Shown: positions 1 to 40,610, counted from the stretch's first letter. The stretch: 57,058 nucleotides of DNA from a virus (IMGVR_UViG_3300032236_000596:1-57058), one strand, 5' to 3'. Translations and numbers: made by a program. The notes: a model not told the origin generated them from the sequence alone.

Positions 1-171
1 ACCACAGAAGCCACACCAATCGAAGCCGAGACAGACGAGGATGCGATGTTTTCGGCTGTCGCCAAGATACTGAACCGTGCTCACGAGAACCCAGAGGGCG
101 TTTGGGGCAAGGGTGAAATCACCCTAAAGGATGAAGCAGGCGACACCGTAGCAGAAATGGCAGGTAAATAA
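1..171 (+). CDS. Partial small acidic protein (5' end outside window)
   Basis: Frame 1 is open to TAA at 169-171 (TTEATPIEAETDEDAMF...) and has the EA-x-x-(E/D)-(E/D)-A motif seen in neighbouring genes. Confidence 0.6.
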   Translation, partial: TTEATPIEAETDEDAMFSAVAKILNRAHENPEGVWGKGEITLKDEAGDTVAEMAGK

Positions 172-172
172 G

Positions 173-379
173 ATGATTAGAACCTATGACGACATATCAA
201 ACGCCGTAGACCACTGGGCGCTAGAAATCTTCAGGTCATACCCACTTGATAGGCTTGTGAACCTCAAGGCCGTATTCAACAAGCAAAAGCACGAGGCCGA
301 GCGTAATGGGGATGAGAAGGGCGCATTTGGCTCTCTAATCCTCGAACGCCTAGTTATCAGGGTTATTAGCGAACGATAA
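173..379 (+). CDS. Hypothetical protein
   Basis: 68-aa ORF directly after the upstream stop, followed by a terminator. Confidence 0.65.
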   Translation: MIRTYDDISNAVDHWALEIFRSYPLDRLVNLKAVFNKQKHEAERNGDEKGAFGSLILERLVIRVISER

Positions 380-391
380 CTAAAAACCCGC

Positions 392-433
392 CAGAGCGCC
401 TCACAGGGCTTCCTGTGGGGTGTTCTGCTTTCT
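392..433 (+). terminator. Intrinsic terminator-like hairpin
   Basis: cagagcgcctcacagg-gctt-cctgtggggtgttctg followed by ctttct. Confidence 0.6.
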
Positions 434-471
434 CAGGGAACTGGCAGAAAACTCACAGCAAACTCACAGAG

Positions 472-557
472 TTGTTGGGTTGGGCTGTTTATAAGTGCTG
501 TTGTGTGCCTACGCAAAAGCAGCTACGGCTACAGCTTTAAACAGCCCAACCCAACAA
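472..557. repeat. Palindromic element, copy 1
   Basis: Perfect 20-bp arms ttgttgggttgggctgttta (472-491) / taaacagcccaacccaacaa (538-557), extendable inward with bulges. Confidence 0.9.
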
Positions 558-577
558 ACCTGGGAACTGGCTGGGAA

Positions 578-596
578 CCTGTGAGTATCCTGTGAG
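578..596 (+). promoter_or_regulatory. 11-bp-phased CCTGTGAG direct-repeat pair
   Basis: CCTGTGAG at 578 and 589, with an inverted pair ACTCACAG at 451 and 462. The same pairing recurs at 1872/1883, 2609/2620, 3190/3201, 3912/3923, 3931/3942, 5627/5638 and 6023/6034. Confidence 0.75.
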
Positions 597-697
597 TTAT
601 CGAAAATAGGCTTGCCAGACTTGCGAGAGAGAGGGCGGTTTAGTAAGTTTGTCTTATCGGCACAGATGTTGCCGTGTAAGAGATAGGAAAAAACAAG

Positions 698-1699
698 ATG
701 GCCCACGCCCTCGAAATCAACGAAGCAACAGGCGAAACCGCATTTGCGCTACGCGGTGAGCCTGCATGGCACAAACTAGGCACCGTATTCGATGCCAACG
801 CCCACATCACCACCACCGAGATGCTAGAGATGGCACACCTCAATGACTGGGATGTTCGCCTAGAGGAACTGACCGTTCCCGAGGGCTACCGCTCAACAAC
901 CAAGCAACAGATGGTTTTGCGCACAAACCCGTTTGACCAAGGAACCGATGTTCTGGCAATTGTAGGCAACCGCTACAATGTCGTGCAGAACGAACACCTG
1001 TTTGCATTCGCCGACAACATCCTAGACGGTGGCGCAGACTGGGAATCGGCAGGCTCAATCAAGAATGGCAAGGTTGTTTTCGGTAGCCTTGTAGTTCCGC
1101 GAGAGTTCACCCTTGACCCAGAGGGCGCGAACGACAAGACCAAGACTTATCTGGTTGTTCACACCTCTCACGATGGCTCAACCGCGGTGCAGGCCAACAT
1201 CACGCCTGTGCGTGTTGTCTGCCAGAACACCCTGAACATGGCAATTCATGGCTCCAAGCAGTCTTTTAAGATTCGCCACACTGCAACCGTAGACGGCCGA
1301 ATCGATGAAGCGCGCCGAGTCTTGGGCTTGACTTTCGGCCACATGGATAAGTTCGAGGAGATGGCGCGCCAGATGTTCGAGACCGCAATCACCGATGCCC
1401 AGTTTGATAACCTTGTAAAGTCAATTTACGAGGAGCCAGAGCAGGGTTCGGCTAAGAGCGCGTTCACCGTTTGGAACGACAAGGTAGACCTGATTCACGA
1501 ACTCTACTCGAACGGAATCACCAACCAGAACATCACTGGAACCGCGTGGGGCGCGCTCAACGCCCTGACCGAGCGCATCGATTACTACCGAATCGGGCGC
1601 AAGGGTGGGGAAGCCATCGTTGCCGCGGCCTCGGGCTTTGACCCAGTGGTAAACGCCGAAAAGAACCGCATCCTCAACGCGGTTATGGCGATGGTCTAA
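698..1699 (+). CDS. DUF932 / TIGR03299-family phage-plasmid protein
   Basis: PAWHKLG, SHDGS and RVVCQNTL motifs; C-terminal GTAWGALNALTE; upstream SD. Confidence 0.85.
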   Translation: MAHALEINEATGETAFALRGEPAWHKLGTVFDANAHITTTEMLEMAHLNDWDVRLEELTVPEGYRSTTKQQMVLRTNPFDQGTDVLAIVGNRYNVVQNEHLFAFADNILDGGADWESAGSIKNGKVVFGSLVVPREFTLDPEGANDKTKTYLVVHTSHDGSTAVQANITPVRVVCQNTLNMAIHGSKQSFKIRHTATVDGRIDEARRVLGLTFGHMDKFEEMARQMFETAITDAQFDNLVKSIYEEPEQGSAKSAFTVWNDKVDLIHELYSNGITNQNITGTAWGALNALTERIDYYRIGRKGGEAIVAAASGFDPVVNAEKNRILNAVMAMV

Positions 1700-1710
1700 A
1701 CAACCGCCAG

Positions 1711-1741
1711 AACCCCTCCTAGCCTCGCTAGGGGGGTTTCT
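1711..1741 (+). terminator. Intrinsic terminator
   Basis: aacccctcctagc-ctc-gctaggggggtt followed by tct, directly after the DUF932 stop. Confidence 0.65.
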
Positions 1742-1764
1742 GCGTTCCCAGGGAACTCACAGAT

Positions 1765-1846
1765 TTGCTGGGTTGGATGCCTATTAGCCTAGCGATGCGA
1801 AGCGCGCAAAAAAGGCCCTTAGGCTAATAGGCATCCAACCCAACAA
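1765..1846. repeat. Palindromic element, copy 2
   Basis: 27-bp arms 1765-1791 / 1820-1846 with one mismatch in the outer part; 28-nt loop. Confidence 0.9.
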
Positions 1847-1904
1847 GCCTATTATCAGCAAACTCCCAGTTTCTGTGAGGTTCCTGTGAATAGGGCAGAA
1901 ATGC

Positions 1905-1933
1905 TTGGTAGGCGTGTCTAACTGCCCTACTAT
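1905..1933 (+). promoter_or_regulatory. Sigma-70/SigA-type promoter
   Basis: TTGGTA-N17-TACTAT downstream of the CCTGTGA pair. Confidence 0.55.
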
Positions 1934-1970
1934 GGAGATACATAGGAAACGCAAACAGAAAGGCAAGACT

Positions 1971-2411
1971 ATGTGGGAGAACCAAGAGAACAACGAGAAC
2001 CAGACCGAGGCCGAGGCCGAGGTTATCAAGCCAACTTACGAGCAGTTGGAGGAGGGCTACAAGACCCTCGAACTACAAATCAAGATGTTGACCGAGGGCC
2101 GAGATGGGTGGCGCAACCGCTACACCGAGGCATCGGGCAGGGTTGAGGAACTCAACACCTACCTGACCGACAACTGGGAGGAACTGGGCGACCACGCCGA
2201 GACCATCGCAGACATCTTCGGTCTGGAAACCACGATTACCAAGACCGTTCGCTGGTCTGTGGAAATCGAGATGAACATCTCGGCCAGCCGCAACTTCGAC
2301 TTCGACAGCCTTGACGAGGGCGACTTCTACATCGATGTAAGCAACCGAGGCGGAAACGACATCGAAATCGAAGATGTCGACTGGTCAGGCACGGACATCT
2401 CGGTAGATTAG
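1971..2411 (+). CDS. Hypothetical acidic coiled-coil protein
   Basis: ATG at 1971 follows an AGAAAGG SD; the longer ORF-track start at 1905 overlaps the promoter. Confidence 0.75.
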   Translation: MWENQENNENQTEAEAEVIKPTYEQLEEGYKTLELQIKMLTEGRDGWRNRYTEASGRVEELNTYLTDNWEELGDHAETIADIFGLETTITKTVRWSVEIEMNISASRNFDFDSLDEGDFYIDVSNRGGNDIEIEDVDWSGTDISVD

Positions 2412-2467
2412 CAAGATTGGTAAGGGGCGGGCCTAGGTCTGTGAGCCTAGCGCCCCTTATCTCCCTT

Positions 2468-2511
2468 TCCCCCGTAGGAGCACCCCCTCGCTCCTACGGG
2501 GGATTTCTTTT
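2468..2511 (+). terminator. Intrinsic terminator
   Basis: tcccccgtaggagc-accccctc-gctcctacggggga followed by tttctttt. Confidence 0.75.
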
Positions 2512-2592
2512 GCTGGGTTGGCTGTCTATTGCTGTAGCGGGCCGTTTTCCGCTCGCATAGCTCTTTACAGCAATAGACAGCCAACCTAACAA
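2510..2592. repeat. Palindromic element, copy 3
   Basis: 27-bp arms 2510-2536 / 2566-2592 with a perfect inner 15 bp; 29-nt loop. Confidence 0.9.
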
Positions 2593-2699
2593 GTCTGTTA
2601 TCCCCAATCCTTAGAGTTTCCTGTGAATTGGTCTGCGCAGGTGGCTTTTAGAGAGAGGCCGTGTAATGTAGTAATACCACCCACGAGAGAGGAAACCAA

Positions 2700-3188
2700 A
2701 TGGGATTGGACATGTATCTATCGGCACGAAAGTATGTTGCCAAGGTTGATTGGGAACAGACACGCAAAGACCCTGATAGCCCTTATGTAATCACCGAGGA
2801 TTACAAGGCTGTTATGGCACTAGCACCAGAGGGAATTGACGAACTCGCCGATGTATCTGGCGCAAACATAGAGTTCCCTATCGGGTATTGGCGCAAAGCC
2901 AATGCTATCCACGGCTGGATTGTTGAGAACTGCGCTGGTGGCGAGGACAACTGCCAACCAGTTCGCCTGCCTCTTGGCAAGTTGATGGAACTATCTGCCC
3001 TTGTTGATGAGGTCTTGGAGTCAAAGAACGCAGGCCTATTACCTCCTGCCGAGGGCTTTTTCTTCGGCACTTACGAGATTGACGAGTGGTATTTCTCTTA
3101 CTTAGAGAAAACCAAGGCTATTATGGACAAGGCCAAGGTTCTTGCCGACAGCGCACAATACGACATCTACTATCAGGCAAGTTGGTAA
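2700..3188 (+). CDS. Conserved phage hypothetical protein (MGLDMYL...YWRKAN family)
   Basis: MGLDMYL start, GYWRKANAIHGW, GFFFG and YYQASW end; AGAGAGGAAA SD. Confidence 0.8.
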   Translation: MGLDMYLSARKYVAKVDWEQTRKDPDSPYVITEDYKAVMALAPEGIDELADVSGANIEFPIGYWRKANAIHGWIVENCAGGEDNCQPVRLPLGKLMELSALVDEVLESKNAGLLPPAEGFFFGTYEIDEWYFSYLEKTKAIMDKAKVLADSAQYDIYYQASW

Positions 3189-3258
3189 TCCTGTGAGTTC
3201 CCTGAGAATTGACCTCGACACGCTCAAAATGTCGCACCCCACTAATAAGGTAGGAAGT

Positions 3259-3585
3259 ATGAAAACACTAAACAGAAACGGTATCGCCAAGCGATACGGG
3301 GTAGATTACTCAACTGTGTTCGGCTGGACTAAGGACACCTCGTTCCCAGCCTCTATTGGTAAGCGCAAGCACGGGGCGTTGTTTTGGAACGCCAATGAAG
3401 TCTATGCTTGGGTATCAACCAACCGCCCTCATAACAAAATGGTTAAGGTAATCAAGGTGGCAACACCAGTAGAACCTATCCAGCCTGTTATCCAGCCAAG
3501 CACCACCACCTTGGAGGTAATCAACCTCCTGCTCAAAGACGACAAGGCCAAGCAGCGTCTGGTCTTGGACTTGCTACTAGACTAG
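3259..3585 (+). CDS. Xis/AlpA-like winged-helix DNA-binding protein
   Basis: IAKRYGVDYSTVFGW...FP...W...EV..W pattern; ATG at 3259 after a TAAGGTAGGA SD. Confidence 0.7.
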   Translation: MKTLNRNGIAKRYGVDYSTVFGWTKDTSFPASIGKRKHGALFWNANEVYAWVSTNRPHNKMVKVIKVATPVEPIQPVIQPSTTTLEVINLLLKDDKAKQRLVLDLLLD

Positions 3586-3594
3586 GGGGTGAGT

Positions 3595-3672
3595 ATGGCA
3601 ACTCCAAAGACCCCAAAGCCTAAGCAAGGCAACGGCGCAACAATTAGGATTACTGACGGCAGACGAAAGTAA
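3595..3672 (+). CDS. Putative 25-aa basic micropeptide
   Basis: MATPKTPKPKQGNGATIRITDGRRK with a GGGGGTGA SD. Confidence 0.4.
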   Translation: MATPKTPKPKQGNGATIRITDGRRK

Positions 3673-3813
3673 TCTGGCTAAACTCCCCGCCCGCCCACTC
3701 GCGAACACGAAAGCGGGCGGGGGTTTCCAGCCCCCACAGGCTCACAGCGTTGGAGACGCCTCACTTATTGAGGCTTCGATGCGTGAGACCTGTGGGGGTT
3801 CTCCTTATCAGGC

Positions 3814-3894
3814 TTGTTGGGTTGGCTTCTATTCGGCTATAAAGCTGTTTTTGTGGGCATGGCCCTCATAGCCGAATAGAAGCCAACCCAGCAA
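3814..3894. repeat. Palindromic element, copy 4
   Basis: 27-bp arms 3814-3840 / 3868-3894 with one T.G pair in the outer part; 27-nt loop. Confidence 0.9.
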
Positions 3895-4035
3895 GTTTAT
3901 TATCATGCTTACCTGGGAGTTCCCTGAGAACCTGGCAGTTTCCTGTGAATGTGTCGCAAGAGGTGTCGGGAACTGGCATTTGCCTATCTAAGAGAGTAAT
4001 GTCGTATTTGTAATCCCAACAGAGAGGAAACCTAA

Positions 4036-4248
4036 ATGGGAAAGCGGTATGTAATCACCAGCACTATCGAGTTCGGCTACGAAAGCGACCACGGCGAGTT
4101 CGCCAGTATGGAGGAGGCAGAGGCGTTCGCAGGCAACTACGACAACCTTATGTATTACGCCGTAGACAGCCAAGACATTGAGGAAATCGAAACTTGCGAC
4201 GACTGCGAGCAGGACTTGGATGCCTGCGACTGCGAGGAGGAGGAGTAA
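4036..4248 (+). CDS. Small acidic hypothetical protein
   Basis: AGAGAGGAAA SD; C-terminal CxxC...CxC. Confidence 0.75.
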   Translation: MGKRYVITSTIEFGYESDHGEFASMEEAEAFAGNYDNLMYYAVDSQDIEEIETCDDCEQDLDACDCEEEE

Positions 4249-4427
4249 TGGCTACCTTTGTAGTTCAGGTAAACGAACTTATTATCCACACAACAGAGGT
4301 GGAGGCCAGCACCGAGGAGGAGGCTCGCCAACTGGGTATCGGCATTATCCTTGACGGGCCAGACACCCTTTACAACACCGACAGCGATGGTATCCAGGCT
4401 ATTTATGTATACGGGGAGAACGACTAA
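4248..4427 (+). CDS. Small acidic protein, DpnD/PcfM-like
   Basis: TAATG stop-start coupling; TEVEASTEEEA motif. Confidence 0.7.
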   Translation: MATFVVQVNELIIHTTEVEASTEEEARQLGIGIILDGPDTLYNTDSDGIQAIYVYGEND

Positions 4428-4681
4428 TGCGCGATTACTACCCATACTGCGAGAGGTGCTTGGAGAAACCAGCACCAGACGCCAAAGAGTTCTACGACTA
4501 CCGCTTTGATAAGCCTATTTGTCTATCCTGCGTTGAGGAGTATGGCTTAGAGCCAACTTCTTGTGGACACTCTAAGTTGGAATGCCCTAAGCACGGAGGC
4601 GCATTTGATTGTACGCCGTTCTGCCAAGTATGCGAGGGCAATCAGGAATACTGCCCGTTCTGCGATTACAAGGCGGAATAA
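4427..4681 (+). CDS. Cys-rich zinc-binding hypothetical protein
   Basis: Multiple CxxC motifs; TAATG coupling. Confidence 0.7.
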   Translation: MRDYYPYCERCLEKPAPDAKEFYDYRFDKPICLSCVEEYGLEPTSCGHSKLECPKHGGAFDCTPFCQVCEGNQEYCPFCDYKAE

Positions 4682-4830
4682 TGAATATCAAGCCTAATAA
4701 AGTCAATGTAATCGTCTGCCCAGCCTGTAAGGACACGGCAGAGATAGATACCCGAAACGGCGGTATCAAGATAACGCCCTGTTCCTGTGTAATTGCTGAG
4801 GAACTAGACAACTACACCACCAAGCAGTAA
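4681..4830 (+). CDS. Small zinc-ribbon protein
   Basis: CPAC...CSC; TAATG coupling. Confidence 0.6.
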   Translation: MNIKPNKVNVIVCPACKDTAEIDTRNGGIKITPCSCVIAEELDNYTTKQ

Positions 4831-4855
4831 AGTAATCACAGAGAGGAAACACGAA

Positions 4856-5089
4856 ATGGAATACGAAGTACAGCAAAAGGCCACCGTTTGGTACAAGATT
4901 ACGGTGGAGGCTAATAGCCCTATTGAGGCTATCGAGAAAGTACAAGAAAGCATCCACCTTACTGATGCGGAGAACGCCTCTTGGTGGCTTATCCAAGACA
5001 GCGAGGAGTTCCAAGACGAGTACTGGACAGAGGAAACTGGCCTCTACGATGGCAAGACTGGTACATACGAAAATCAGGCGGATAACTAA
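4856..5089 (+). CDS. Small acidic protein, DpnD/PcfM-like
   Basis: ITVEANSPIEA motif; AGAGAGGAAA SD. Confidence 0.75.
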   Translation: MEYEVQQKATVWYKITVEANSPIEAIEKVQESIHLTDAENASWWLIQDSEEFQDEYWTEETGLYDGKTGTYENQADN

Positions 5090-5254
5090 ATGGGTAAGTT
5101 CTTGATACAAAAGCGTGTCTTTGAGGACTACGAGGCAGTCGTTGAGGCGGAAAACGAGGATGAAGTCTATGACCTTGTTGCCAATGACGAAGTTGAGTGG
5201 CAGTTCATAGCCAGCGATGATGACGGGCTTATTATCGAGGAGTACAATGAGTAA
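5090..5254 (+). CDS. Small acidic protein, DpnD/PcfM-like (54 aa, not in ORF track)
   Basis: MGKFLIQKRVFEDYEAVVEAENEDEVYDLV..., directly after the previous stop. Confidence 0.7.
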   Translation: MGKFLIQKRVFEDYEAVVEAENEDEVYDLVANDEVEWQFIASDDDGLIIEEYNE

Positions 5255-5342
5255 GCACAGATACCCAATAAGCCCATTAGAGGTAGTAATTTCGGCCCTT
5301 GGCAGGATTATTATCCGCCTTACAGAGATACACGCAGTCCTA

Positions 5343-5371
5343 TTGACTAGACAGGGTAGAAAGAGTAGGAT
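5343..5371 (+). promoter_or_regulatory. Sigma-70/SigA-type promoter
   Basis: TTGACT-N17-TAGGAT. Confidence 0.65.
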
Positions 5372-5377
5372 GTAGTA

Positions 5378-5490
5378 AAGACTTGCGGTAGCGGACCCCT
5401 TCCCCCTACCGCACCAACGCTGGGCTTCTATCCTTTCTGTGCCCAGCCGAGAGCCCCCAGGTGCCCCCTATCCGCCTGGGGGCTCTCTTT
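5378..5490 (+). ncRNA. Candidate three-hairpin small RNA
   Basis: Follows the promoter. Stems at 5384-5391/5406-5413, 5419-5425/5441-5447 and 5449-5463/5473-5487, then TTT. No SD-led ORF. Confidence 0.55.
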
Positions 5491-5491
5491 A

Positions 5492-5507
5492 TGTTTCACG
5501 TGAACCA
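5492..5507. promoter_or_regulatory. parS-like site
   Basis: TGTTTCACGTGAACCA, a 15/16 match to the parS consensus TGTTTCACGTGAAACA. Confidence 0.65.
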
Positions 5508-5529
5508 AAACAAGCCTATTACGCCGAAA

Positions 5530-5612
5530 TTGCTGGGTTGGAAGCCTTTATGCCTAAGAGCCGTTTTTGCTCGCTCCGCACCGCATAGGCATAAAGGCTT
5601 CCAACCTAACAA
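5530..5612. repeat. Palindromic element, copy 5
   Basis: 27-bp arms 5530-5556 / 5586-5612 with a perfect inner 15 bp; 29-nt loop. Confidence 0.9.
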
Positions 5613-5663
5613 GTTTATTACGGTTTCCTGTGAATTCCCTGTGAATACGGCGTGTCGGCTTGA

Positions 5664-5959
5664 CCATAGAGAGAGGAGAGAGTAAGCTACGCCGGCCAGG
5701 GGCTCGAATTATAACGATTTGATAACGGGGGTTGCCATTTCCCCATAGAGAGAGTAAGGTATGCCACCCCGCCATAGAGAGAGGAGATAATAGGGCTGTT
5801 TAGGCTACTGCCTAGAACTTAATAGGCTTGCGTAGGGATAAGGCCAGATTTACAGCCTGTTTCGGCTGAAACATAGTTGCTATGACTATTGACTTATCGG
5901 TCTCTATGGTGTAAGTGCTACAACCAATATAAACCCTCTCTCTAGATGTATCTCTATGG
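5664..5959. repeat. CCATAGAGAGAG repeat cluster
   Basis: Direct copies at 5664, 5743 and 5772; inverted partial copies TCTCTATGG at 5901 and 5951. Confidence 0.75.
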
Positions 5960-6143
5960 ACTAGAGGTGGAATTAGTAATGCGCCCTTTCCCTTTCCTGA
6001 TGAGCAGGGCTATGCGAGAGAACCTGAGAGTTTCCTGTGAGATACAGAAATGCCTTGTTCTAATACCTGAATAACCCACTAAAATCGAGAGGTGGCAGAA
6101 AGTCTGCCCAGACCGCACACAGAAAGCGAGAGTGAGAGCGATT

Positions 6144-7535
6144 ATGAGCATCGCCCTACTTATCCAAAGCAACACCGATAACGGAGTTCTACAGACTGTT
6201 ATCGTTCCTACTAACCGAGAGGTCCTTACGTTCCACCGCCTCTCTACGGGCTTGCGAGGTCGTGCCTCACGCTGGCAGACCGCAGACCTAGACACCTTGC
6301 CAAGCGCACCTACCACCTACGCACCTGTAAGTGTCGTGCTATCGCCTAAAGATGTCGCAAACGCCGAACTGGGCAACATCACCGCCCTCTCGGTCAAGTT
6401 GCTCGGTATCCCTACCGACAGCGGAATTGACCCTGTGCCTCACAATGAGCAGGTGGCAGAACTTGTTGAGGCGCTATTCTCTGGCGACAGCGACTTGCTA
6501 AACAAGTTTGTTAGCGACAACCGCCGAAAGAACCCAATGGTGTTCGACCCTATCGGCGAACTGACCACCGCCTACTTTCCAGCAATCGCACCCGTAGAGG
6601 AAACCAAGCCTGTTATGGCAGAACCAGCACCAGCGCCAATTCCTGACCCAGCACCAGCCAAGACCTCGGTGGCTATGCCTACCGAACTTGCTAAAGTGCC
6701 AGACAGCAAGTGGGCAGAGACCTACCTCCACCGAGACGTAGTGAGCAAGGTTAGCGAGTTTGCTATCTATGACGTGGCTATGGCGAACCACCAGAACGTC
6801 ATTATCGAGGGTCCAGCAGGTTCGGGCAAGACAATGAGTATCCTCGCCTATGCGAGTGAGCGTGGCTACCGCTACTACAACGTATCGGCGAACGTAGGAC
6901 TAGAACCAAGCCACCTATTCGGCGCTTGGACACCTACCGAGACCGCTGGCGTATTCACTTGGCAAGACGGACCAGTAACCGACCTCGTTCGACACGGAGG
7001 CGTGCTGTTGCTAAACGAAATTGACTTTATGCCCGAGCGAATTACTACAGTCCTATTTGGCTTGCTAGATGACCGCCGAGAAATCCAGTTGCTTGAGCGT
7101 GGTGGCGAGGTAATCAAGGCGCACCCGAACCTCCTAATCGTGGGCGACCACAACCCGAACTACCGAGGCAGTCGCCCGATGAACCAAGCGTGGAAAGACC
7201 GCTTTGCCCACAAGTTGTCGTTTGGATACGACAAGTCAATCGAACGCAAACTTATTAAGTCCAAGACCTTGCTTGAGGTCGCCGACAAGTTGCGCCAGTC
7301 GCACGACAAGGGCGAAATCGACACGCCAGTATCGACCAGAGGTTTAATAGCCTTTGTAAAGAACGTTGAGAACCTCGGTCTCGACTACGCCCTGACCTCC
7401 TACGTCAATGGCTTTGGCGTAGACGAGCGTGAGGGCGTGAAGTTGGTGCTGGACACCTTTAAGGCAGGTCTCGGCAAGGACTTTGGCGTTGAGGTCAAGA
7501 CCAGCACCAAGCAAGCAGACGAGGACCAGAACTAA
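6144..7535 (+). CDS. MoxR/CbbQ/CobS-family AAA+ ATPase
   Basis: Walker A GPAGSGKT, Walker B LLLNEID, WQDGPV, NPNYRG and AWKDRF. Confidence 0.9.
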   Translation: MSIALLIQSNTDNGVLQTVIVPTNREVLTFHRLSTGLRGRASRWQTADLDTLPSAPTTYAPVSVVLSPKDVANAELGNITALSVKLLGIPTDSGIDPVPHNEQVAELVEALFSGDSDLLNKFVSDNRRKNPMVFDPIGELTTAYFPAIAPVEETKPVMAEPAPAPIPDPAPAKTSVAMPTELAKVPDSKWAETYLHRDVVSKVSEFAIYDVAMANHQNVIIEGPAGSGKTMSILAYASERGYRYYNVSANVGLEPSHLFGAWTPTETAGVFTWQDGPVTDLVRHGGVLLLNEIDFMPERITTVLFGLLDDRREIQLLERGGEVIKAHPNLLIVGDHNPNYRGSRPMNQAWKDRFAHKLSFGYDKSIERKLIKSKTLLEVADKLRQSHDKGEIDTPVSTRGLIAFVKNVENLGLDYALTSYVNGFGVDEREGVKLVLDTFKAGLGKDFGVEVKTSTKQADEDQN

Positions 7536-9631
7536 TGGCTAAGAGCGTTCGACAAGGCGAGGGCGACCAGTTTGATTACTGGAACTCTTGGCAAGCCTAT
7601 ATACAAGAATACGATATCAAGCCTGTTTCGACTGGCGTTCAGGCTGTCGCAGAGCGTATGCGTGAGGCAGGGCTGACCGAGGAACAAGCCCGAAAGGAAC
7701 TAGCGGAGGAATACTACGCCCAGCGTGAGGAGGCGCAGAAGTATGGGCGCACCCTCCAAGCCCGAAAGGACCAAGAGGCGCTCGTTCGCAACAACGAACT
7801 GGACAGCGCTTGTGCGGTCTATCAAAAGGCAGACCGTATCTTGACTGGCAAGCCTATTAACGTGTTCCTTAATGACGTAGATGAACCTACGCCAGCGTGG
7901 AACGACGGCGTTAATATTACGTTTAACGTTAATGCCATTAAGACATTAACCGAGAACCACCTACTCGCTCACCACGGGCTGAACTACCACGAACTAGCGC
8001 ACCTGTTCTACACGCCTCGTATCGGTTCTGCCCTCGGTAAGTGGGTAATGGAAAACAAGACTGTTAAGAACGAGCACGTTCGCCCTACTGTAGCGGTTGA
8101 TGAAAGTGGCGAACTTGTCTATGGCACCGAGACCTACTACACCGAGCAAACGGAACTGGTGGATAATCGCCGACAGACTGCCTTTAACATATTGGAGGAC
8201 AGTCGTGCCGAATATTACCTCATTACGAAGTTTCCAAGCGCTCGCCCGTTCTTGGTCGCTACTATCGGCGATTACATAGCCAGCAATGCTGACGACATAG
8301 TTAATAACTTTATGTTGCTCGTAGGTCGTAAATACTTTGACCTTGACGTGCGAATTATGTCGGCGCAGGGCTATGCCCGTGTCTATGGCGAGGACAATGC
8401 TAAGGCTATTTACAACGTAGTTGCCGAGTATCGCACCCTCGTATTCCCTCGCCAGTTTGACCGAGCGAAAGAACTAATTACCAAGTTAGTTAATCTCTTG
8501 CCAGAGGACTACCAGCCGACCAGCCCTAAGCACCGAGACGGCAAGGGCAACCAGTCCTCGCTTGGACCGACTGGCTGTAGTGGTCGCCCTCTTATGAGGA
8601 ACGGAAAGGTTGAGAGCGAGAAAGCCCAGAACGACCTTATGGACAGCGCCGACAAGACTGACCAACTTGGCGAGGCTATCGATGTCGGCAAGGGCGCAGA
8701 CAACAACACGGGCAACGCCCAGAACCCGAACTGGGAAACTGTTGAGGCTGAACTTACCGAGAAAATTAACCAGTTAGTTGAGCAAGCCAAGCAAGACCCA
8801 GCGGTCAAGCGCAAGGTCGTGGACACTATCAAGGCTATTAACAAGGACACCAGCACCAAGTCTATGCTCGGCAAGGCAACCGCCGAGAGCGTAGAACCGA
8901 CAGCGCAGGACATTACTGCCAGCCGACTGTTCGCCCAAGAACTTGAGCGTATCCGTATCGACAGCGACCCAGCGTGGGAACTTGAGCGACCAACTGGCAA
9001 ACTGAACGTTCGCAGGGCTATTAACGCCGACATTAACGATATCGGCAGACTGTTTGACCGCTGGACAACTGGCAACGACAACCACGAAATCGAGGCGACA
9101 GTCCTCCTCGATAGGTCTGGCAGTATGTCGCACAGTATCGGCGCAGTCTGTCGCTCGGCTTGGATTATCAAGCGTGCTATCGAAAAGATATCAGGGCGAG
9201 TATCTGTTCTCTCGTTTAGTGATGTTAGCCGAGTGCTTTACAGCGCAGACGAGAAAGCAGGGGCAACCGCTAAGGTCGTCAATGCTAACGGAGGCACAGA
9301 CCCGTTCTATTCGCTTAAGGAAAGCGAGAGGGTGCTGACCCAGAGCAAGGCTAAGACCAAGTTGCTGTTCTTGCTGACTGACGGAGGGTTTAGCGAGGCT
9401 GGTAATGACGACATTATCCAGCGCCTCCAGCGTGAGGGCGTGTATGTCGTGGTCGTGTTCTTGTCTTACCCACAATGGCTAGAGCAGATACTAAGCGACC
9501 CTAAGGCAGTCGAGAAATACGGACACGGGGCAGACCTGTTCAGGGCAATCGGCGACCCACTAGACCTCGTTAAAATTGCTAAGAGCGTGGTCAAGGCTAT
9601 GGCTGGTAATAAGAACCGAGCAGTCGCATAA
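7535..9631 (+). CDS. vWA-domain protein with N-terminal HExxH motif (CobT-like MoxR partner)
   Basis: YHELAH...FNILED; MIDAS DRSGSM, GGTD and LTDG; coupled to the ATPase gene. Confidence 0.88.
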   Translation: MAKSVRQGEGDQFDYWNSWQAYIQEYDIKPVSTGVQAVAERMREAGLTEEQARKELAEEYYAQREEAQKYGRTLQARKDQEALVRNNELDSACAVYQKADRILTGKPINVFLNDVDEPTPAWNDGVNITFNVNAIKTLTENHLLAHHGLNYHELAHLFYTPRIGSALGKWVMENKTVKNEHVRPTVAVDESGELVYGTETYYTEQTELVDNRRQTAFNILEDSRAEYYLITKFPSARPFLVATIGDYIASNADDIVNNFMLLVGRKYFDLDVRIMSAQGYARVYGEDNAKAIYNVVAEYRTLVFPRQFDRAKELITKLVNLLPEDYQPTSPKHRDGKGNQSSLGPTGCSGRPLMRNGKVESEKAQNDLMDSADKTDQLGEAIDVGKGADNNTGNAQNPNWETVEAELTEKINQLVEQAKQDPAVKRKVVDTIKAINKDTSTKSMLGKATAESVEPTAQDITASRLFAQELERIRIDSDPAWELERPTGKLNVRRAINADINDIGRLFDRWTTGNDNHEIEATVLLDRSGSMSHSIGAVCRSAWIIKRAIEKISGRVSVLSFSDVSRVLYSADEKAGATAKVVNANGGTDPFYSLKESERVLTQSKAKTKLLFLLTDGGFSEAGNDDIIQRLQREGVYVVVVFLSYPQWLEQILSDPKAVEKYGHGADLFRAIGDPLDLVKIAKSVVKAMAGNKNRAVA

Positions 9632-9653
9632 TTTAATACCGCATTAAAGCATT

Positions 9654-9682
9654 AAAGCCAGCCCGAAAGGGCTGGCTTTCTT
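9654..9682 (+). terminator. Intrinsic terminator
   Basis: aaagccagccc-gaaa-gggctggcttt followed by ctt. Confidence 0.85.
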
Positions 9683-10005
9683 GCTATCTGCTGAACGTGT
9701 ATGGCAGTCGGGCGGGTGGAGTGCTAACCGGAGTGAGCAGGAGGGCGCAGAACCACCTCTGGCTAATACAGAACTGTATTTAAATAAGCCCATAATCCTA
9801 TTCTGTTAATACCTGTATGCCGAAATAATCGTGCCGGCACAGATTAACCGAAGGGCTACGAAGGTGAATTGGCTGCCGGCAGCAAATGAAGGCGACCACA
9901 GAGCGCAGAGCGTTAATACATAAATACATTAAGACGAGGCAAGCCCTAAGCCCTCCTGCTGACCCACCGACATTATTGTTTCTGGCAGAAATATTGCTGG
10001 AGGAC

Positions 10006-10058
10006 TTGACCACTAGATGTAGTGGTGTATGCTCGTTCCTACCACTAGATGTAGTGGT
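10006..10058 (+). promoter_or_regulatory. Promoter overlapped by tandem NrdR boxes
   Basis: Identical ACCACTAGATGTAGTGGT at 10009 and 10041 (32 bp apart); TTGACC-N16-TATGCT. Confidence 0.75.
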
Positions 10059-10076
10059 CCTGAGAGAGGAACTACT

Positions 10077-10502
10077 ATCCAAACTTTCTTACCTTATGCC
10101 AACCCAGCAAAATCGGCTGAGGCGCTGGACTACAGGCGCTTGGGCAAGCAACGCGTAGAGACATACCAGATACTCAACAGCCTGATAGGGGCGAGCAACG
10201 GGTGGCTGAACCACCCAGCGGTGAAGATGTGGGCAGGATATGAGATAGCCCTAGCCGACTACGGGCTGGCGATGTGCGACGAGTGGATAGCCAGAGGCTA
10301 CAAAGACACAACGAGAGATAAGATACTGGAGATTAAGAGAGGGCTGGTCGCTGGGGGAGAGGGCGGAGAGAACCCCTGGTGGCTGGGAGAGGAGAACCTC
10401 CACCTATCGCACCAGAGCAATCTACTACGCAAAGACCCTATTTACTATGGGCAGTTATTTATAGGAATACCTGACGATATGCCCTACGTCTGGCCCGTTT
10501 AA
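10077..10502 (+). CDS. Pyrimidine-dimer DNA glycosylase / endonuclease V family (MSMEG_6728-like)
   Basis: QTFLPY...LDYRRLGKQRVE, HPAVKMWAGY, SHQSNLLRKD and YVWP. Probable start is ATC at 10077; the ORF-track ATG at 10029 lies inside the -10 box. Confidence 0.85.
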   Translation: MQTFLPYANPAKSAEALDYRRLGKQRVETYQILNSLIGASNGWLNHPAVKMWAGYEIALADYGLAMCDEWIARGYKDTTRDKILEIKRGLVAGGEGGENPWWLGEENLHLSHQSNLLRKDPIYYGQLFIGIPDDMPYVWPV

Positions 10503-10531
10503 ACCCTCCGCAGTGTAGCGCTCAAACTGAG

Positions 10532-10600
10532 GAGAGAACTTTTTGAGAGAGCGTTTTTTGAGAGAGAACTTTTCCAAAGAGAGCACTTTTTGAGAGAGTG
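10532..10600. repeat. Degenerate GAGAG-N2-3-TTTT tandem repeats at the strand switch
   Basis: gagagaactttttgagagagcgttttttgagagagaacttttccaaagagagcactttttgagagag. Confidence 0.7.
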
Positions 10601-10632
10601 CCAAAACAGACCTTTTTTGCCACTCATAGTTA

Positions 10633-12084
10633 CTATGAGTTGGGCGGGTCAATCTGCTTAATAACCTCATTAACTTGGCTTTCGTTGAGGCCGCCATTAG
10701 GCAATTCGTTCAGGATTTGCGCCCTATCACCGAACAGCGCAGACATCACGCCAGCACTTCCAGAGCGTTCTACAGTCATTCTAATAGTCTCTTTTGACTG
10801 GTCCATCTTGGCAATTTGCTCAAGCATTTTAAAGAAACGGTCCATCTCCTGACCCACGTTAGGGTCTGGATAACCACCATTTAGGTCCTCGGTAAACTTG
10901 GCAAATGCCACTCGCTGCCCTTGTATTTCAAGGAAAGTGTTAATAAGCGCCTTAAGTTGGTCCTTGGTCTTTACCTCCAGCGGGAGATTAAACGCACACG
11001 CGTTGTCTGGCACAAACGCAGGGCAGTTATCCCTGACGAAACAGGTATTACATTGACGTAGGCTATTGCCAGTAGAGCGAGCAACAGGCACGTCTCTTAA
11101 TACATCAACACCATTTTCGTCGGTCTCGATACTGCGCGAAAAGTCGATACCGATGACCGGCAGCGGGCGAATTTCGTCCGGTTTACGTGCTACAACTTTC
11201 CGCTTCTCGACCCCCCTCATGGTAACATCAACAGGGGTAGTTTCCGCTTTTTCGGGGGGTAGCATATCGTCACTCATAGTTACTATGTCCGTTCGGTTAT
11301 TCCACGCTTCTAACTGCTGGTAGGACCAAACTGCTAGTTTAGATACCTCAATAGCGTCATCGGCTAATATCTTATCAAAGTCCAGCCCTGCCTGCTGATA
11401 TACAGCACGATAACGGCTTCTGGCTTGGTCTTTCATACGCTTCGGGTAACGGGTTAATGTATTAGCCTGCCATACAATCGTCTCGCCCCTCATCATTGGC
11501 GACAGCCACGCAAGGGTGGCGGCCGTAACGAACGGCGACTTACGCAGGCCCTCAAGTTTAGCCATACCTAGCGCGTGGAACTGTGTTCCGTGCTGGCTGC
11601 TGAACTTACGCATCTGGGCTTCCAGCGAAGGGTCTTTCTCTATTAAATCGCCCTGAATACAGACGTTTAAATATCTAGTTGCTAGGCTTTCTAGGTTTCC
11701 ACCATTATAAATAGCGGCGAACTTCTCGTCAGGCACGTCGTCCCAAGCGCCCTGGCGCTGCGCCTGGATGAACTCATCAGAGGCGCTAGGGTGGTTAATC
11801 TCAGTAAATAGGCTAATTCTATTTAGGTTAGTAGCAATAAAGTCCTCGTAGTCCGCTGCGAACTCCTCCAGCTCATCAGCGGTCATCTCCTTCGAGGACG
11901 GGATGCCAGGGTAAACGTGTATATGAACGCCCTCGGTGAAATAGTTTTCTAGCAAATACGTCTTGGTTTTAGGCAATCCACGGCGGACTAGGCCCCAGTA
12001 ACTTACGCCGACGTGGGTGGCGCTCTGCTGCTCAAGGATTAGGCGGTTGCTTGGGACCTCGGCCCCTAGGAATACAATATTCAT
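10633..12084 (-). CDS. Degenerate TGT/DpdA-like barrel protein with C-terminal Cys cluster
   Basis: Motif order VSYW, DYEDFI, FHALG, PFVTAATLAW resembles phage TGT-like proteins; CNTC..C..C near the C-terminus. Confidence 0.55.
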   Translation of the reverse strand: MNIVFLGAEVPSNRLILEQQSATHVGVSYWGLVRRGLPKTKTYLLENYFTEGVHIHVYPGIPSSKEMTADELEEFAADYEDFIATNLNRISLFTEINHPSASDEFIQAQRQGAWDDVPDEKFAAIYNGGNLESLATRYLNVCIQGDLIEKDPSLEAQMRKFSSQHGTQFHALGMAKLEGLRKSPFVTAATLAWLSPMMRGETIVWQANTLTRYPKRMKDQARSRYRAVYQQAGLDFDKILADDAIEVSKLAVWSYQQLEAWNNRTDIVTMSDDMLPPEKAETTPVDVTMRGVEKRKVVARKPDEIRPLPVIGIDFSRSIETDENGVDVLRDVPVARSTGNSLRQCNTCFVRDNCPAFVPDNACAFNLPLEVKTKDQLKALINTFLEIQGQRVAFAKFTEDLNGGYPDPNVGQEMDRFFKMLEQIAKMDQSKETIRMTVERSGSAGVMSALFGDRAQILNELPNGGLNESQVNEVIKQIDPPNS

Positions 12085-32753: not shown

Positions 32754-32857
32754 TTAGCGACCTACCTTTCCTTGTTAGTTAGTACTCGGTCGTTTATTGT
32801 CAAAGTGACATTGTTACCAATATTCAGTTGTAAGAAAAACCTTACCACAGAATACAG

Positions 32858-32930
32858 TGCCCTCGGCTGGAATCGAACCAGCGACTAAGAGATTAGAAGG
32901 CTCCTACTCTATCCACTGAGTTACGAGGGC
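32858..32930 (-). tRNA. tRNA-Arg(UCU)
   Basis: GCCCTCG/CGAGGGC acceptor stem, anticodon loop CTTCTAA, GGTTCGATT T-arm; no encoded CCA. Confidence 0.92.
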
Positions 32931-34215: not shown

Positions 34216-34225
34216 ATTATTTAAG

Positions 34226-34298
34226 CTGACCGAGCAGGGCTCGAACCTGCGACCTAGAAGTTAACAGCTTCCCGCTCTGCCATCTGAGCTATCGGTCA
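34226..34298 (-). tRNA. tRNA-Asn(GUU)
   Basis: TGACCGA/TCGGTCA acceptor stem, loop CTGTTAA, GGTTCGAG T-arm; no encoded CCA. Confidence 0.92.
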
Positions 34299-39766: not shown

Positions 39767-40610
39767 CCTCCAAAAGGGCTAGCTTCTTGGACACACGGGC
39801 GCTGTCTTCAACGATGGCGGTCTGGATGTCCTCTGCCGATACTACCTGCTCGCGCGCAGATTGCAAGAGCATCGGCGCTTTGTACATGAAAGCGTGCCAC
39901 AAGTGGTTGCCGTCCTTGTACTTTTCGGCCTTGAGAGTCGAGAAAAACATCTCAATCATCTTGAGCTCGAGCGCGCCGTTGGTGTCGTGCTGCTTGCGAA
40001 ATACTCCGAGAGACTGCACAAAACGCGACTGGGTCACGCTGAACGGAGCAATGCTCCAGAAGTCTGCCATGCGAGTAGCAAACTCGTAGGCAACGTCCTT
40101 GCTGGTCCAGTGCAGAGGTTCAACCTGTGAGCGGTGAGTGTTGCGCTTGTCGGCGGTCTTAGCCTTTGCCTCTGCGTACTCAGCCTTCTTCTGAGCCATG
40201 TGCTTTTCGCGCTCGCGGATTAGCTCGTCATCACCAGAGGACGTGCTATCAAAGAAATCGTAACCCACGCTTTTGCCTTCCTCTCCGACCTCGTCGGAGA
40301 AATATGTAGCATTTCTGCTAGTACTAGCAATACTGCTATTGTAAATACTGCTTATTGGCTGTACTGCTACTACAGCTATACCAGACGTTACCACTGTGGT
40401 CACGTCGGACGTTACCAGTTTGACATTGGTTCCGCCGCCAACAAGCTTCACAATTTTGATGTGATTGTGCTCTCGTAGCTCCTTTAGGATGGCCAGACTT
40501 TTTCGTCTGCTAACTCCTTTTTCCATCAGGGTACGGTAGTTAATCCGAACGTGCGGATTTTGGGTAAAGTAAACTAGCCAGTCCATAGACTGGCGGCTGA
40601 GTGCCGGCAT
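39753..40610 (-). CDS. Putative replication initiator (N-terminal wHTH)
   Basis: Upstream of the DnaC-like gene; HTH-like N-terminus; internal short DNA repeats. Confidence 0.55.
   Translation of the reverse strand: MPALSRQSMDWLVYFTQNPHVRINYRTLMEKGVSRRKSLAILKELREHNHIKIVKLVGGGTNVKLVTSDVTTVVTSGIAVVAVQPISSIYNSSIASTSRNATYFSDEVGEEGKSVGYDFFDSTSSGDDELIREREKHMAQKKAEYAEAKAKTADKRNTHRSQVEPLHWTSKDVAYEFATRMADFWSIAPFSVTQSRFVQSLGVFRKQHDTNGALELKMIEMFFSTLKAEKYKDGNHLWHAFMYKAPMLLQSAREQVVSAEDIQTAIVEDSARVSKKLALLEDDDV

Follow-up and report, generated by a model that had tools for sequence, protein, structure and literature searches.

At the 3′ end of a rightward operon in an uncultured phage, a stable three-hairpin fold carries a hairpin whose stem covaries among relatives, whose loop core is invariant, and whose loop is the antisense of a motif found directly upstream of the start codon in several genes of the same phage; in other lineages loop and motif change together. 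The most likely reading of this sequence pattern is that the conserved loop controls translation of the phage's own early genes by base pairing. More specifically, the second hairpin of the element (hairpin 2) would pair with the early-gene start motif and turn down that class of messages, a proposal to which a probability of about 0.55 is attached.

The window, the whole stretch of DNA analysed here, is a 57,058-bp IMG/VR viral contig (IMGVR_UViG_3300032236_000596; completeness 62% by CheckV; G+C ∼52%). Its genes are those of a contractile-tail phage, including tail sheath, baseplate J, family A DNA polymerase and SNF2 helicase. The phage is uncultured, its nearest cultured relatives being Streptomyces myophages for the polymerase and sheath (BRock, LuckySocke and others; ∼40% amino acid identity), and Gordonia Bendigovirus phages and Brevibacterium phage Cantare for the AAA-ATPase (44–46% identity), so that an actinobacterial host is plausible; a search of cultured phage records with the DNA of 5200–5950 gave no matches. 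The first ∼10 kb of the window holds small rightward genes and an AAA-ATPase/vWA pair, the remainder being largely leftward; 'early', applied here to the rightward genes, is a label taken from gene layout alone. Usage of ribosome-binding sites (RBSs) splits by strand, the small rightward genes carrying AGAGAGGAAAC or ACAGAAAGG and the leftward genes mostly (T)AGGAG or AAGGAG. Two tRNA genes lie on the minus strand (32857–32930 and 34225–34298; Arg(TCT) and Asn(GTT)). The early arm is composed of repeated modules with the order stop codon, hairpin with a pyrimidine-rich loop, terminator, ∼90-nt palindrome, promoter-like sequence, then start motif and next gene; the element at 5378–5492 is the module preceding the ATPase block, where hairpin 2 is an additional insert.

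Features of the element, its targets and its surroundings:
1955–1963, plus strand: start motif ACAGAAAGG of ATG 1971 (8 nt from motif end to codon); 9-bp duplex with the loop
4019–4028, plus strand: start motif ACAGAGAGGA of ATG 4036; 10-bp duplex with the loop, one G-U
4838–4847, plus strand: start motif ACAGAGAGGA of ATG 4856, which opens the hairpin-ended operon
5247–5375, plus strand: conserved 42-codon ORF (MSKHRY...), last gene of the operon, GAGGAG upstream
5343–5371, plus strand: promoter-like match TTGACT-N17-TAGGAT (TTGACT 5343–5348, 17-nt spacer, TAGGAT 5366–5371), inside ORF 5247–5375
5384–5413, plus strand: hairpin 1, stem UGCGGUAG/CUACCGCA, C-rich loop; from fold and relatives
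5419–5447, plus strand: hairpin 2, stem GCUGGGC/GCCCAGC, loop 5426–5440; from fold and relatives
5432–5440, plus strand: hairpin 2 loop core CCUUUCUGU, invariant in all 11 aligned sequences; complement of start motif ACAGAAAGG
5449–5497, plus strand: hairpin 3 and U-rich tail, 13–15 bp G+C-rich stem; intrinsic-terminator-like 3′ end
6119–6126, plus strand: start motif ACAGAAAG before the AAA-ATPase ATG 6144, retained there in most relatives
472–557, 1765–1846, 2510–2592, 3814–3894 and ∼5527–5615, no strand assigned: five palindromes of ∼85–90 nt, each just past an operon-end terminator

Fold of the element and position of its start motif

Folding of 5378–5492 gives hairpin 1 (5384–5413), hairpin 2 (5419–5447) and hairpin 3 (5449–5487), followed by UUUAUGUUU. 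The minimum free energy is −62.4 kcal/mol, where shuffles average −34.2 (z = −9.94; equalled by 0 of 200 shuffles). A first-pass annotation of this DNA had described three hairpins and a T-tract, which the fold and the tail bear out, and pyrimidine-rich loops, a description that holds for all three hairpins. The loop of hairpin 2 is 15 nt long (UUCUAUCCUUUCUGU, 5426–5440) and unpaired in the predicted fold. Hairpin 1 has its counterpart in the first post-stop hairpin of the repeated operon-end modules, with stem and loop that vary among relatives. Hairpin 3 and the UUUAUGUUU tract together form a G+C-rich stem-loop followed by a U-rich tract, a layout that recurs in relatives, and are predicted to act as an intrinsic terminator. 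A 22-nt inverted repeat, 73% complementary, also links the 5′ end of ORF 5247 (5255–5276, GCACAGA...GCCCA) to hairpin 2 (5421–5442); it offers an alternative long-range pairing inside one mRNA, and the repeat was not found in relatives.

Known RNA families give little purchase on this fold. Rfam 15 at E ≤ 10 returned no credible match to an sRNA or cis-regulatory family across 4800–6300 of the window (6C, C4 and antitermination RNAs included), and a scan of the whole window at the gathering threshold returned two tRNAs and nothing else. The match to ctRNA_pGA1 (RF00236) at 5423–5501, with 24.6 bits and E 0.029, falls below that family's gathering threshold of 45 bits, which places the element outside the family, and is owed to the shape of hairpin 2 plus terminator. 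The other matches in 4800–6300 were a 15-bit HIV-1_SL3 at 5344–5365, in the promoter-like stretch, weak miRNA-like matches on the adjoining palindrome, and one distant RsmY.

The first-pass annotation had also proposed that the middle loop is complementary to the RBSs upstream of 1971, 4036 and 4856, and this stands, with 9–10 bp at each and a fourth site before 6144; the element thus presents, as would be expected of an antisense RBS occluder, a single-stranded region complementary over 8–10 bp to sequences before ATG 1971, 4036, 4856 and 6144. The number of copies in the window is by itself weakly unusual, marginally above chance (four ACAGARAGG against 1.14 expected, a count reached by 5 of 100 shuffles); setting aside the loop's own antisense, all three ACAGARAGG copies lie 8–9 nt before an ATG. 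Support for the motif comes from this position before ATGs and from the relatives, not from the count in the window. The loop/start-site duplexes are short (8–10 bp, −14.5 kcal/mol); three start sites, at that energy, are among the seven best partners of the loop on both strands of the window, in which two non-start sites form slightly better duplexes than the start sites.

A survey of 12 non-redundant sources (351,728 bases, both strands), in which a start was an ATG or GTG opening at least 40 codons and the region inspected lay 6–14 nt upstream, identified ACAGAAAG as the top 8-mer in that position, with 16 of its 35 copies so placed; 168 same-composition permutations of ACAGAAAG were found at starts in 11.8% of their occurrences. 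Among the remaining 19 copies, 11 are the antisense of hairpin loops. The distance from ACAGARAG(G) to the start codon is ∼5–13 nt, mostly 8–13, and both this spacing and the AGAAAG(G) core fit a Shine–Dalgarno sequence that would pair with the extreme 3′ terminus of a 16S tail of the CCUCCUUUCU type.

In the proposed mechanism, a rightward operon, presumed to be early, would have this element as its structured 3′ terminus on the plus strand, transcribed in the order stop codon, hairpin 1, hairpin 2, terminator hairpin. Hairpin 2 would display CCUUUCUGU in its open 15-nt loop, from which 8–10 bp may form with ACAGARAG(G), a putative private start-associated signal that overlaps an AGAAAGG-type Shine–Dalgarno sequence; the predicted targets are several presumed early genes, among them the gene that opens the hairpin's own operon and, downstream, the AAA-ATPase gene. 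Pairing would occlude the RBS, possibly creating an RNase III substrate, and either a terminator-protected 3′ fragment or the 3′UTR of the intact mRNA would then turn down the early messages that carry the motif, with genes of the other strand, mostly bearing (U)AGGAG sites, expected to escape. Because the hairpin adjoins the terminator, analogy suggests two routes: in cis, with the 3′UTR acting on its own 5′UTR (ATG 4856 carries a site) in the manner of icaR, or in trans through the terminator-protected fragment. From the same pattern we infer a transcribed, stable RNA that pairs with its targets in vivo and represses them rather than activating or stabilising them; repression is the usual outcome of such RBS pairing.

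Conservation of hairpin 2 and co-variation of loop and motif

An ATPase-anchored search recovered 24 related loci, 14 of them with at least 700 nt upstream. Hairpin 2 and its terminator are present in 11 of these 14, with loops that end in CTTTCTGT and stems that differ; the other three (L022, L023 and L025, with L022 and L023 the same in this region) are more distant lineages with ATPase identities of 47–49%. Loop conservation, which the earlier annotation had offered as a check, is pronounced: the core CCTTTCTGT is invariant in all 11 aligned sequences while the stems diverge around it, with compensatory double changes in six of the eight hairpin 2 stem pairs. Hairpin 2 has a covariation score of 0.446; shuffles give 0.194 ± 0.028, with none of 500 as high, and slid registers at most 0.161. 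The G-U pairs of hairpin 3, the terminator helix, are compatible in relatives with the plus strand only. A covariance model recovers the element at 52–92 bits in every contig that carries it and also picks weaker paralogous modules elsewhere in the same early regions; over five whole related records, covariance model R1 gave only weak matches (≤20 bits), and the exact 23-nt loop-plus-stem pattern gave 0 matches in IMG/VR; the distant lineages were recognised by the logic of loop and motif, not by homology. Other operon-end modules have paralogous first hairpins, and the complementarity of their loops to starts is mixed, some reaching 8–9 nt and most 5–7 nt.

At least three other lineages combine a different start motif with a loop complementary to it (ACGAAGGG/CCCUUCGU, UGGGAAGG/CCUUCCCA and CGAAAGGUU/AACCUUUCG). 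The complete 95,795-bp genome G001 (ATPase 47% identical) lacks both ACAGAAAG and CTTTCTGT over the 21 kb inspected, and its early starts carry ACGAAGG(G). Genome-wide, ACGAAGGG has a single reverse copy, in a loop of 23 nt closed by a perfect 12-bp stem; this hairpin stands 5 nt past the stop of the vWA gene and is followed by a second hairpin and a palindrome arm. Of the three forward copies of ACGAAGGG, two are at starts and the third not convincingly so. The L079/L080/L081/L097 clade (ATPase 53%) contains TGGGAAGG twice only, both 6 nt before an ATG, and CCTTCCCA once, in a hairpin loop directly 5′ of a terminator and palindrome arm. L116 (ATPase 50%) likewise contains CGAAAGGTT twice only, both 4–6 nt before an ATG, and AACCTTTCG once, in a 19-nt hairpin loop, with TAACCTTT common to the loop of a second hairpin. 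Weaker cases are G002/L103, where the matches span 7 nt only, and L090 and L105, with one start site each. Complementarity is therefore evolutionarily maintained, as expected of an antisense RBS occluder, in four lineages with distinct motif/loop pairs; part of it would be expected from any anti-Shine–Dalgarno-like loop, because the start motifs of all the lineages share a GAAAGG-like core.

Genome-wide comparison of loops with start regions by a loose screen gave no enrichment (35 loci, against 32, 15 and 61 in controls), and it was in the noisy list from this screen that the new covarying clades were first spotted. A strict screen took hairpins with a terminator-like hairpin within 15 nt downstream (81 loci, 34 distinct loops) and counted as a match any loop 8-mer whose reverse complement lay ≤20 nt upstream of a likely start; 13 of the 34 loops matched, against 2 (reversed), 5 (complemented) and 2 (same) in controls, in a design that postdates the sighting of the candidate clades in the looser list and that calls gene starts crudely.

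Two further genomes carry features of the same kind. In L073 (1548–1583, equivalent to L046 12017–12106, minus strand), the loop of a second hairpin is GAUUUUUCUUUCGUUUCG. Its complement AAACGAAAG stands before two or three other starts, and AACGAAAG is also enriched at starts overall; this may be a second motif/loop pair. Gordonia phage Gray (L060, MK279853), a cultured relative, carries the motif GAAAGGAACGCG(CA) at 8049, 8402, 8893, 10159 and 15815, directly before genes 70, 71, 72 (the AAA-ATPase), 73 and 85, with no reversed copy of this start motif in record 48,780–88,970 (∼40 kb), an observation that speaks against the pairing model.

Transcript origin and alternative roles of the loop

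A separate small RNA gene with its own promoter had been proposed in the first-pass annotation on the basis of TTGACT-N17-TAGGAT. The sequence is present and scores 9/12, yet it is within chance expectation, with 17 promoter-like sites in 1–12000 of the window against 9.2 ± 3.4 in shuffles, and it lies inside the conserved ORF 5247–5375. The start of this ORF overlaps the stop of ORF 5090–5254 (ATGAGTAA), and it ends in TAG TAA, 9 nt 5′ of hairpin 1; tblastn and translation identify homologues in L010, L007 and L011 (38–41 aa) and, in L002, a start of the form MSKHR..., the product (MSKHRYPISPLEVVISALGRIIIRLTEIHAVLLTRQGRKSRM) having a basic N-terminus, a hydrophobic core and a basic tail. With the threshold relaxed, a sigma-70-like match is still missing from the upstream 200 nt of five of nine relatives, and in the other four the matches are scattered, with none at a conserved distance, so that the own conserved promoter that would mark an independent sRNA gene is missing from these nine. 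In ten relatives hairpin 1 begins 0–12 nt past the stop codon of the upstream gene, or overlaps it, whichever gene that is. Because hairpin 1 abuts stops and the promoter match is both unconserved and common by chance, the element is best read as a 3′-UTR or terminator-linked antisense hairpin at an operon end rather than as a free-standing gene. A ∼110-nt sRNA gene starting near 5378 and acting in trans on start sites, which differs from the favoured explanation in transcript origin alone and shares its mechanism, is nevertheless conceivable, if unlikely: the match is well spaced and would place the RNA start 6–7 nt 5′ of hairpin 1, L014 and L011 have a TANNNT hexamer near hairpin 1, and intragenic promoters exist, points that must be set against the location of the match inside a small conserved ORF, the frequency of comparable matches by chance, their absence or shifting distance in relatives, and the attachment of hairpin 1 to stop codons.

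The remaining alternatives concern what the loop is for, and those that invoke a hairpin of the nut or put type, a duplex-DNA site or a passive stabiliser explain fewer of the facts than loop-to-start-site pairing does. The position of an invariant loop on a freely varying stem, 1–5 nt before a terminator and at the boundary to the next gene block, is what a hairpin bound by protein or RNA polymerase would show if it governed the adjacent terminator like lambda N/nut boxB or HK022 put, with the loop as recognition site and read-through into the ATPase region as output; we consider this quite unlikely, since it leaves unexplained both the exact complementarity of loop and start motif and their joint change in at least three other lineages, since no Rfam family, antitermination RNAs included, was matched at E ≤ 10 bar weak hairpin-like matches, and since the equivalent hairpin of G001 lies behind a different gene. 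Mimicry of the 16S tail, the interpretation given in the first-pass annotation, stands in part, in that CCUUUCU is common to the loop and to the actinobacterial 16S 3′ end; it falters on the invariant GU, to which that tail is not known to have a counterpart, and on the loops of other lineages (CCCUUCGU, CCUUCCCA and AACCUUUCG), which depart from any single tail and match the start motif of their own phage. Since these loops follow their own motif, pure mimicry is the less likely account, and the co-variation argues for loop-to-start-site pairing over it. A decoy of this type, which would titrate a tail-binding factor or bind host mRNAs with AGAAAGGA-type sites in the course of host takeover, gains something from the nearest cultured relatives, which infect Actinobacteria (Streptomyces, Gordonia and Brevibacterium; 40–46% amino acid identity), and is still judged very unlikely.

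That the motif might instead be a duplex operator or promoter element, with the hairpin copy as one inverted, possibly cruciform copy, is suggested by the wealth of DNA repeats in the region (palindromes, CATAGAGAGAG repeats and CCTGTGA boxes). The tight spacing between motif and start codon and its overlap with the Shine–Dalgarno-like purine run point to RNA, as do the stem covariation and plus-strand-only G-U pairs, which indicate a single-stranded RNA fold, and the reverse copy is always in a terminator-adjoining loop, making a DNA site highly improbable. Least probable of all is a plain 3′-end stabiliser, in which the hairpins would block 3′ exonucleases and the loop sequence would have no specific role: tandem operon-end hairpins do recur in these genomes, many with loops that lack start-site complementarity, but a 9-nt core invariant over 11 sequences with diverged stems, and a lineage-specific match of loop to motif, are not what such a structure predicts.

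Related systems, implications and neighbouring repeats

Antisense RNAs that mask an RBS are well known. The c4 antisense RNA of phages P1 and P7 is structured, and its loops pair with the RBS region of an mRNA from its own transcription unit; its one target is the icd/ant operon of an immunity region, and it is released by processing from the 5′ portion of its transcript. The window element resembles c4 as a phage-encoded structured RNA with a loop complementary to the RBS region of phage mRNA, and differs from it in its position at the 3′ end, in having a dispersed start motif as its predicted target, and in its lack of an Rfam match. RNAIII of S. aureus is grouped with the sRNAs that have C-rich loops. 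6C and other sRNAs with C-rich loops are reported to act in trans in Actinobacteria, independently of a chaperone (PMC6486639). The window element has no sequence or structure homology to 6C and no Rfam match above threshold, and is phage-encoded, with a specific 9-nt core rather than a generic C-run. A further parallel is the 3′UTR of the Staphylococcus aureus icaR mRNA, where UCCCCUG pairs with the Shine–Dalgarno region, blocks initiation and forms an RNase III substrate (PMC3868564). The anti-start loop of the window is also in a 3′UTR, and the first gene of its operon carries the complementary site; icaR, however, is a single cellular mRNA acting on itself, whereas the window loop matches a motif common to several phage genes and sits in a covarying hairpin beside a terminator.

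The start-associated sequence (SAS) of mycobacteriophages provides a further comparison. In Pope et al. (2011), a 13-bp SAS precedes non-structural genes of Cluster K, its reader, RNA or protein, is left open, and each K1 genome has one reversed copy (PMC3203893); papers from 2024 and 2025 still call its role unknown (PMC11373665, PMC12699233). The words hairpin, antisense, opposite, reverse and non-coding are absent from the available text of the 2025 paper, the available portions of all three SAS papers (PMC3203893, PMC11373665 and PMC12699233) make no mention of a hairpin at the reversed copy, and no antisense partner of SAS was found in the literature searched. Likenesses include a short asymmetric motif that overlaps and exceeds the Shine–Dalgarno sequence, a few nt before the ATG and in one orientation; in Cluster K it is carried by non-structural genes that follow larger intergenic gaps, with a single reversed copy in K1. 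The SAS differs in consensus (GGGATAGGAGCCC), phage group and genome context, and the Cluster K hairpin lies apparently in a separate non-coding region rather than in a stop-adjoining 3′UTR. As the window motif is ACAGARAG(G) at ∼5–13 nt and the Cluster K SAS is the 13-bp GGGATAGGAGCCC at 3–7 bp before starts, the two follow analogous logic and do not belong to the same family.

The reversed SAS of mycobacteriophage Anaya (L047, JF704106) is itself in a hairpin loop. Over record 20,000–60,835 (40.8 kb), 16 forward copies and one reverse copy occur at ≤2 mismatches, and the reverse copy is the apical loop CCUCCUAUCC (39871–39883) of a hairpin GCGCGG-CCTCCTATCC-CCGCGC. This hairpin lies in the 385-bp gap between gp96 and gp97, in a non-coding stretch (39774–39910) conserved in 138 records, of which nine were aligned and seven used for folding. 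The Cluster K consensus has three helices, with seven of 37 pairs compensated and many G-U pairs; the anti-SAS is at the apex of the third helix and an invariant TAGACT lies ∼95 nt upstream of it. Keshu and SirPhilip are without the anti-SAS loop motif. The Anaya hairpin is, as a lead from sequence, a candidate anti-SAS RNA.

Were the arrangement real, it would give a phage a simple RNA-only means of silencing a single gene class, or of timing it, with genes that have other RBSs escaping. The combination of a gene-class start motif with one co-evolving hairpin loop, acting phage-wide, has no description in the literature searched. It is tentatively suggested, at somewhat less than even odds, that many actinophage-like phages run a private translation code, in which a subset of early genes bears a lineage-specific start motif and a single antisense copy in a hairpin loop, displayed where an early transcript ends or else by a small non-coding RNA, serves as a class-wide switch or timer. 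Such a code would explain SAS, whose role in mycobacteriophages becomes directly testable through the reversed-copy hairpin loop.

Palindromes follow operon-end terminators along the early arm. Their outer arms are conserved (TTGNTGGGTTGG/CCAACCNAACAA) and their inner arms vary among copies yet stay complementary; 12 arm matches occur against 1.1 expected, and all five palindromes lie within the first 5.7 kb. Several copies are also present in relatives, and it is ∼400–570 nt before the ATPase gene, at or near a palindrome, that many related contigs end. The palindromes may be RNase III sites, binding sites for a protein, or mobile repeats. Downstream, the gap before the ATPase gene holds three direct and three inverted copies of CCATAGAGAGAG(G) (5664–5792, plus strand; 5901–5964, minus strand), often adjoining TAnnnT hexamers, as in TTGACC-N17-TAAGCT; in relatives, A[CT]AGAGAGAG stands at this position, and AGAGAGAG-N-TATAAACT is found before early genes. 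By sequence, this repeat looks like an early promoter or operator motif. Boxes of TT(T/C)CCTGTGA(AT), either single or tandem, separate each palindrome from the promoter-like site that follows it (∼1863–1892, 2615–2626, 3916–3950, 5625–5650 and 6023–6040), and were not seen in L002 or L010.
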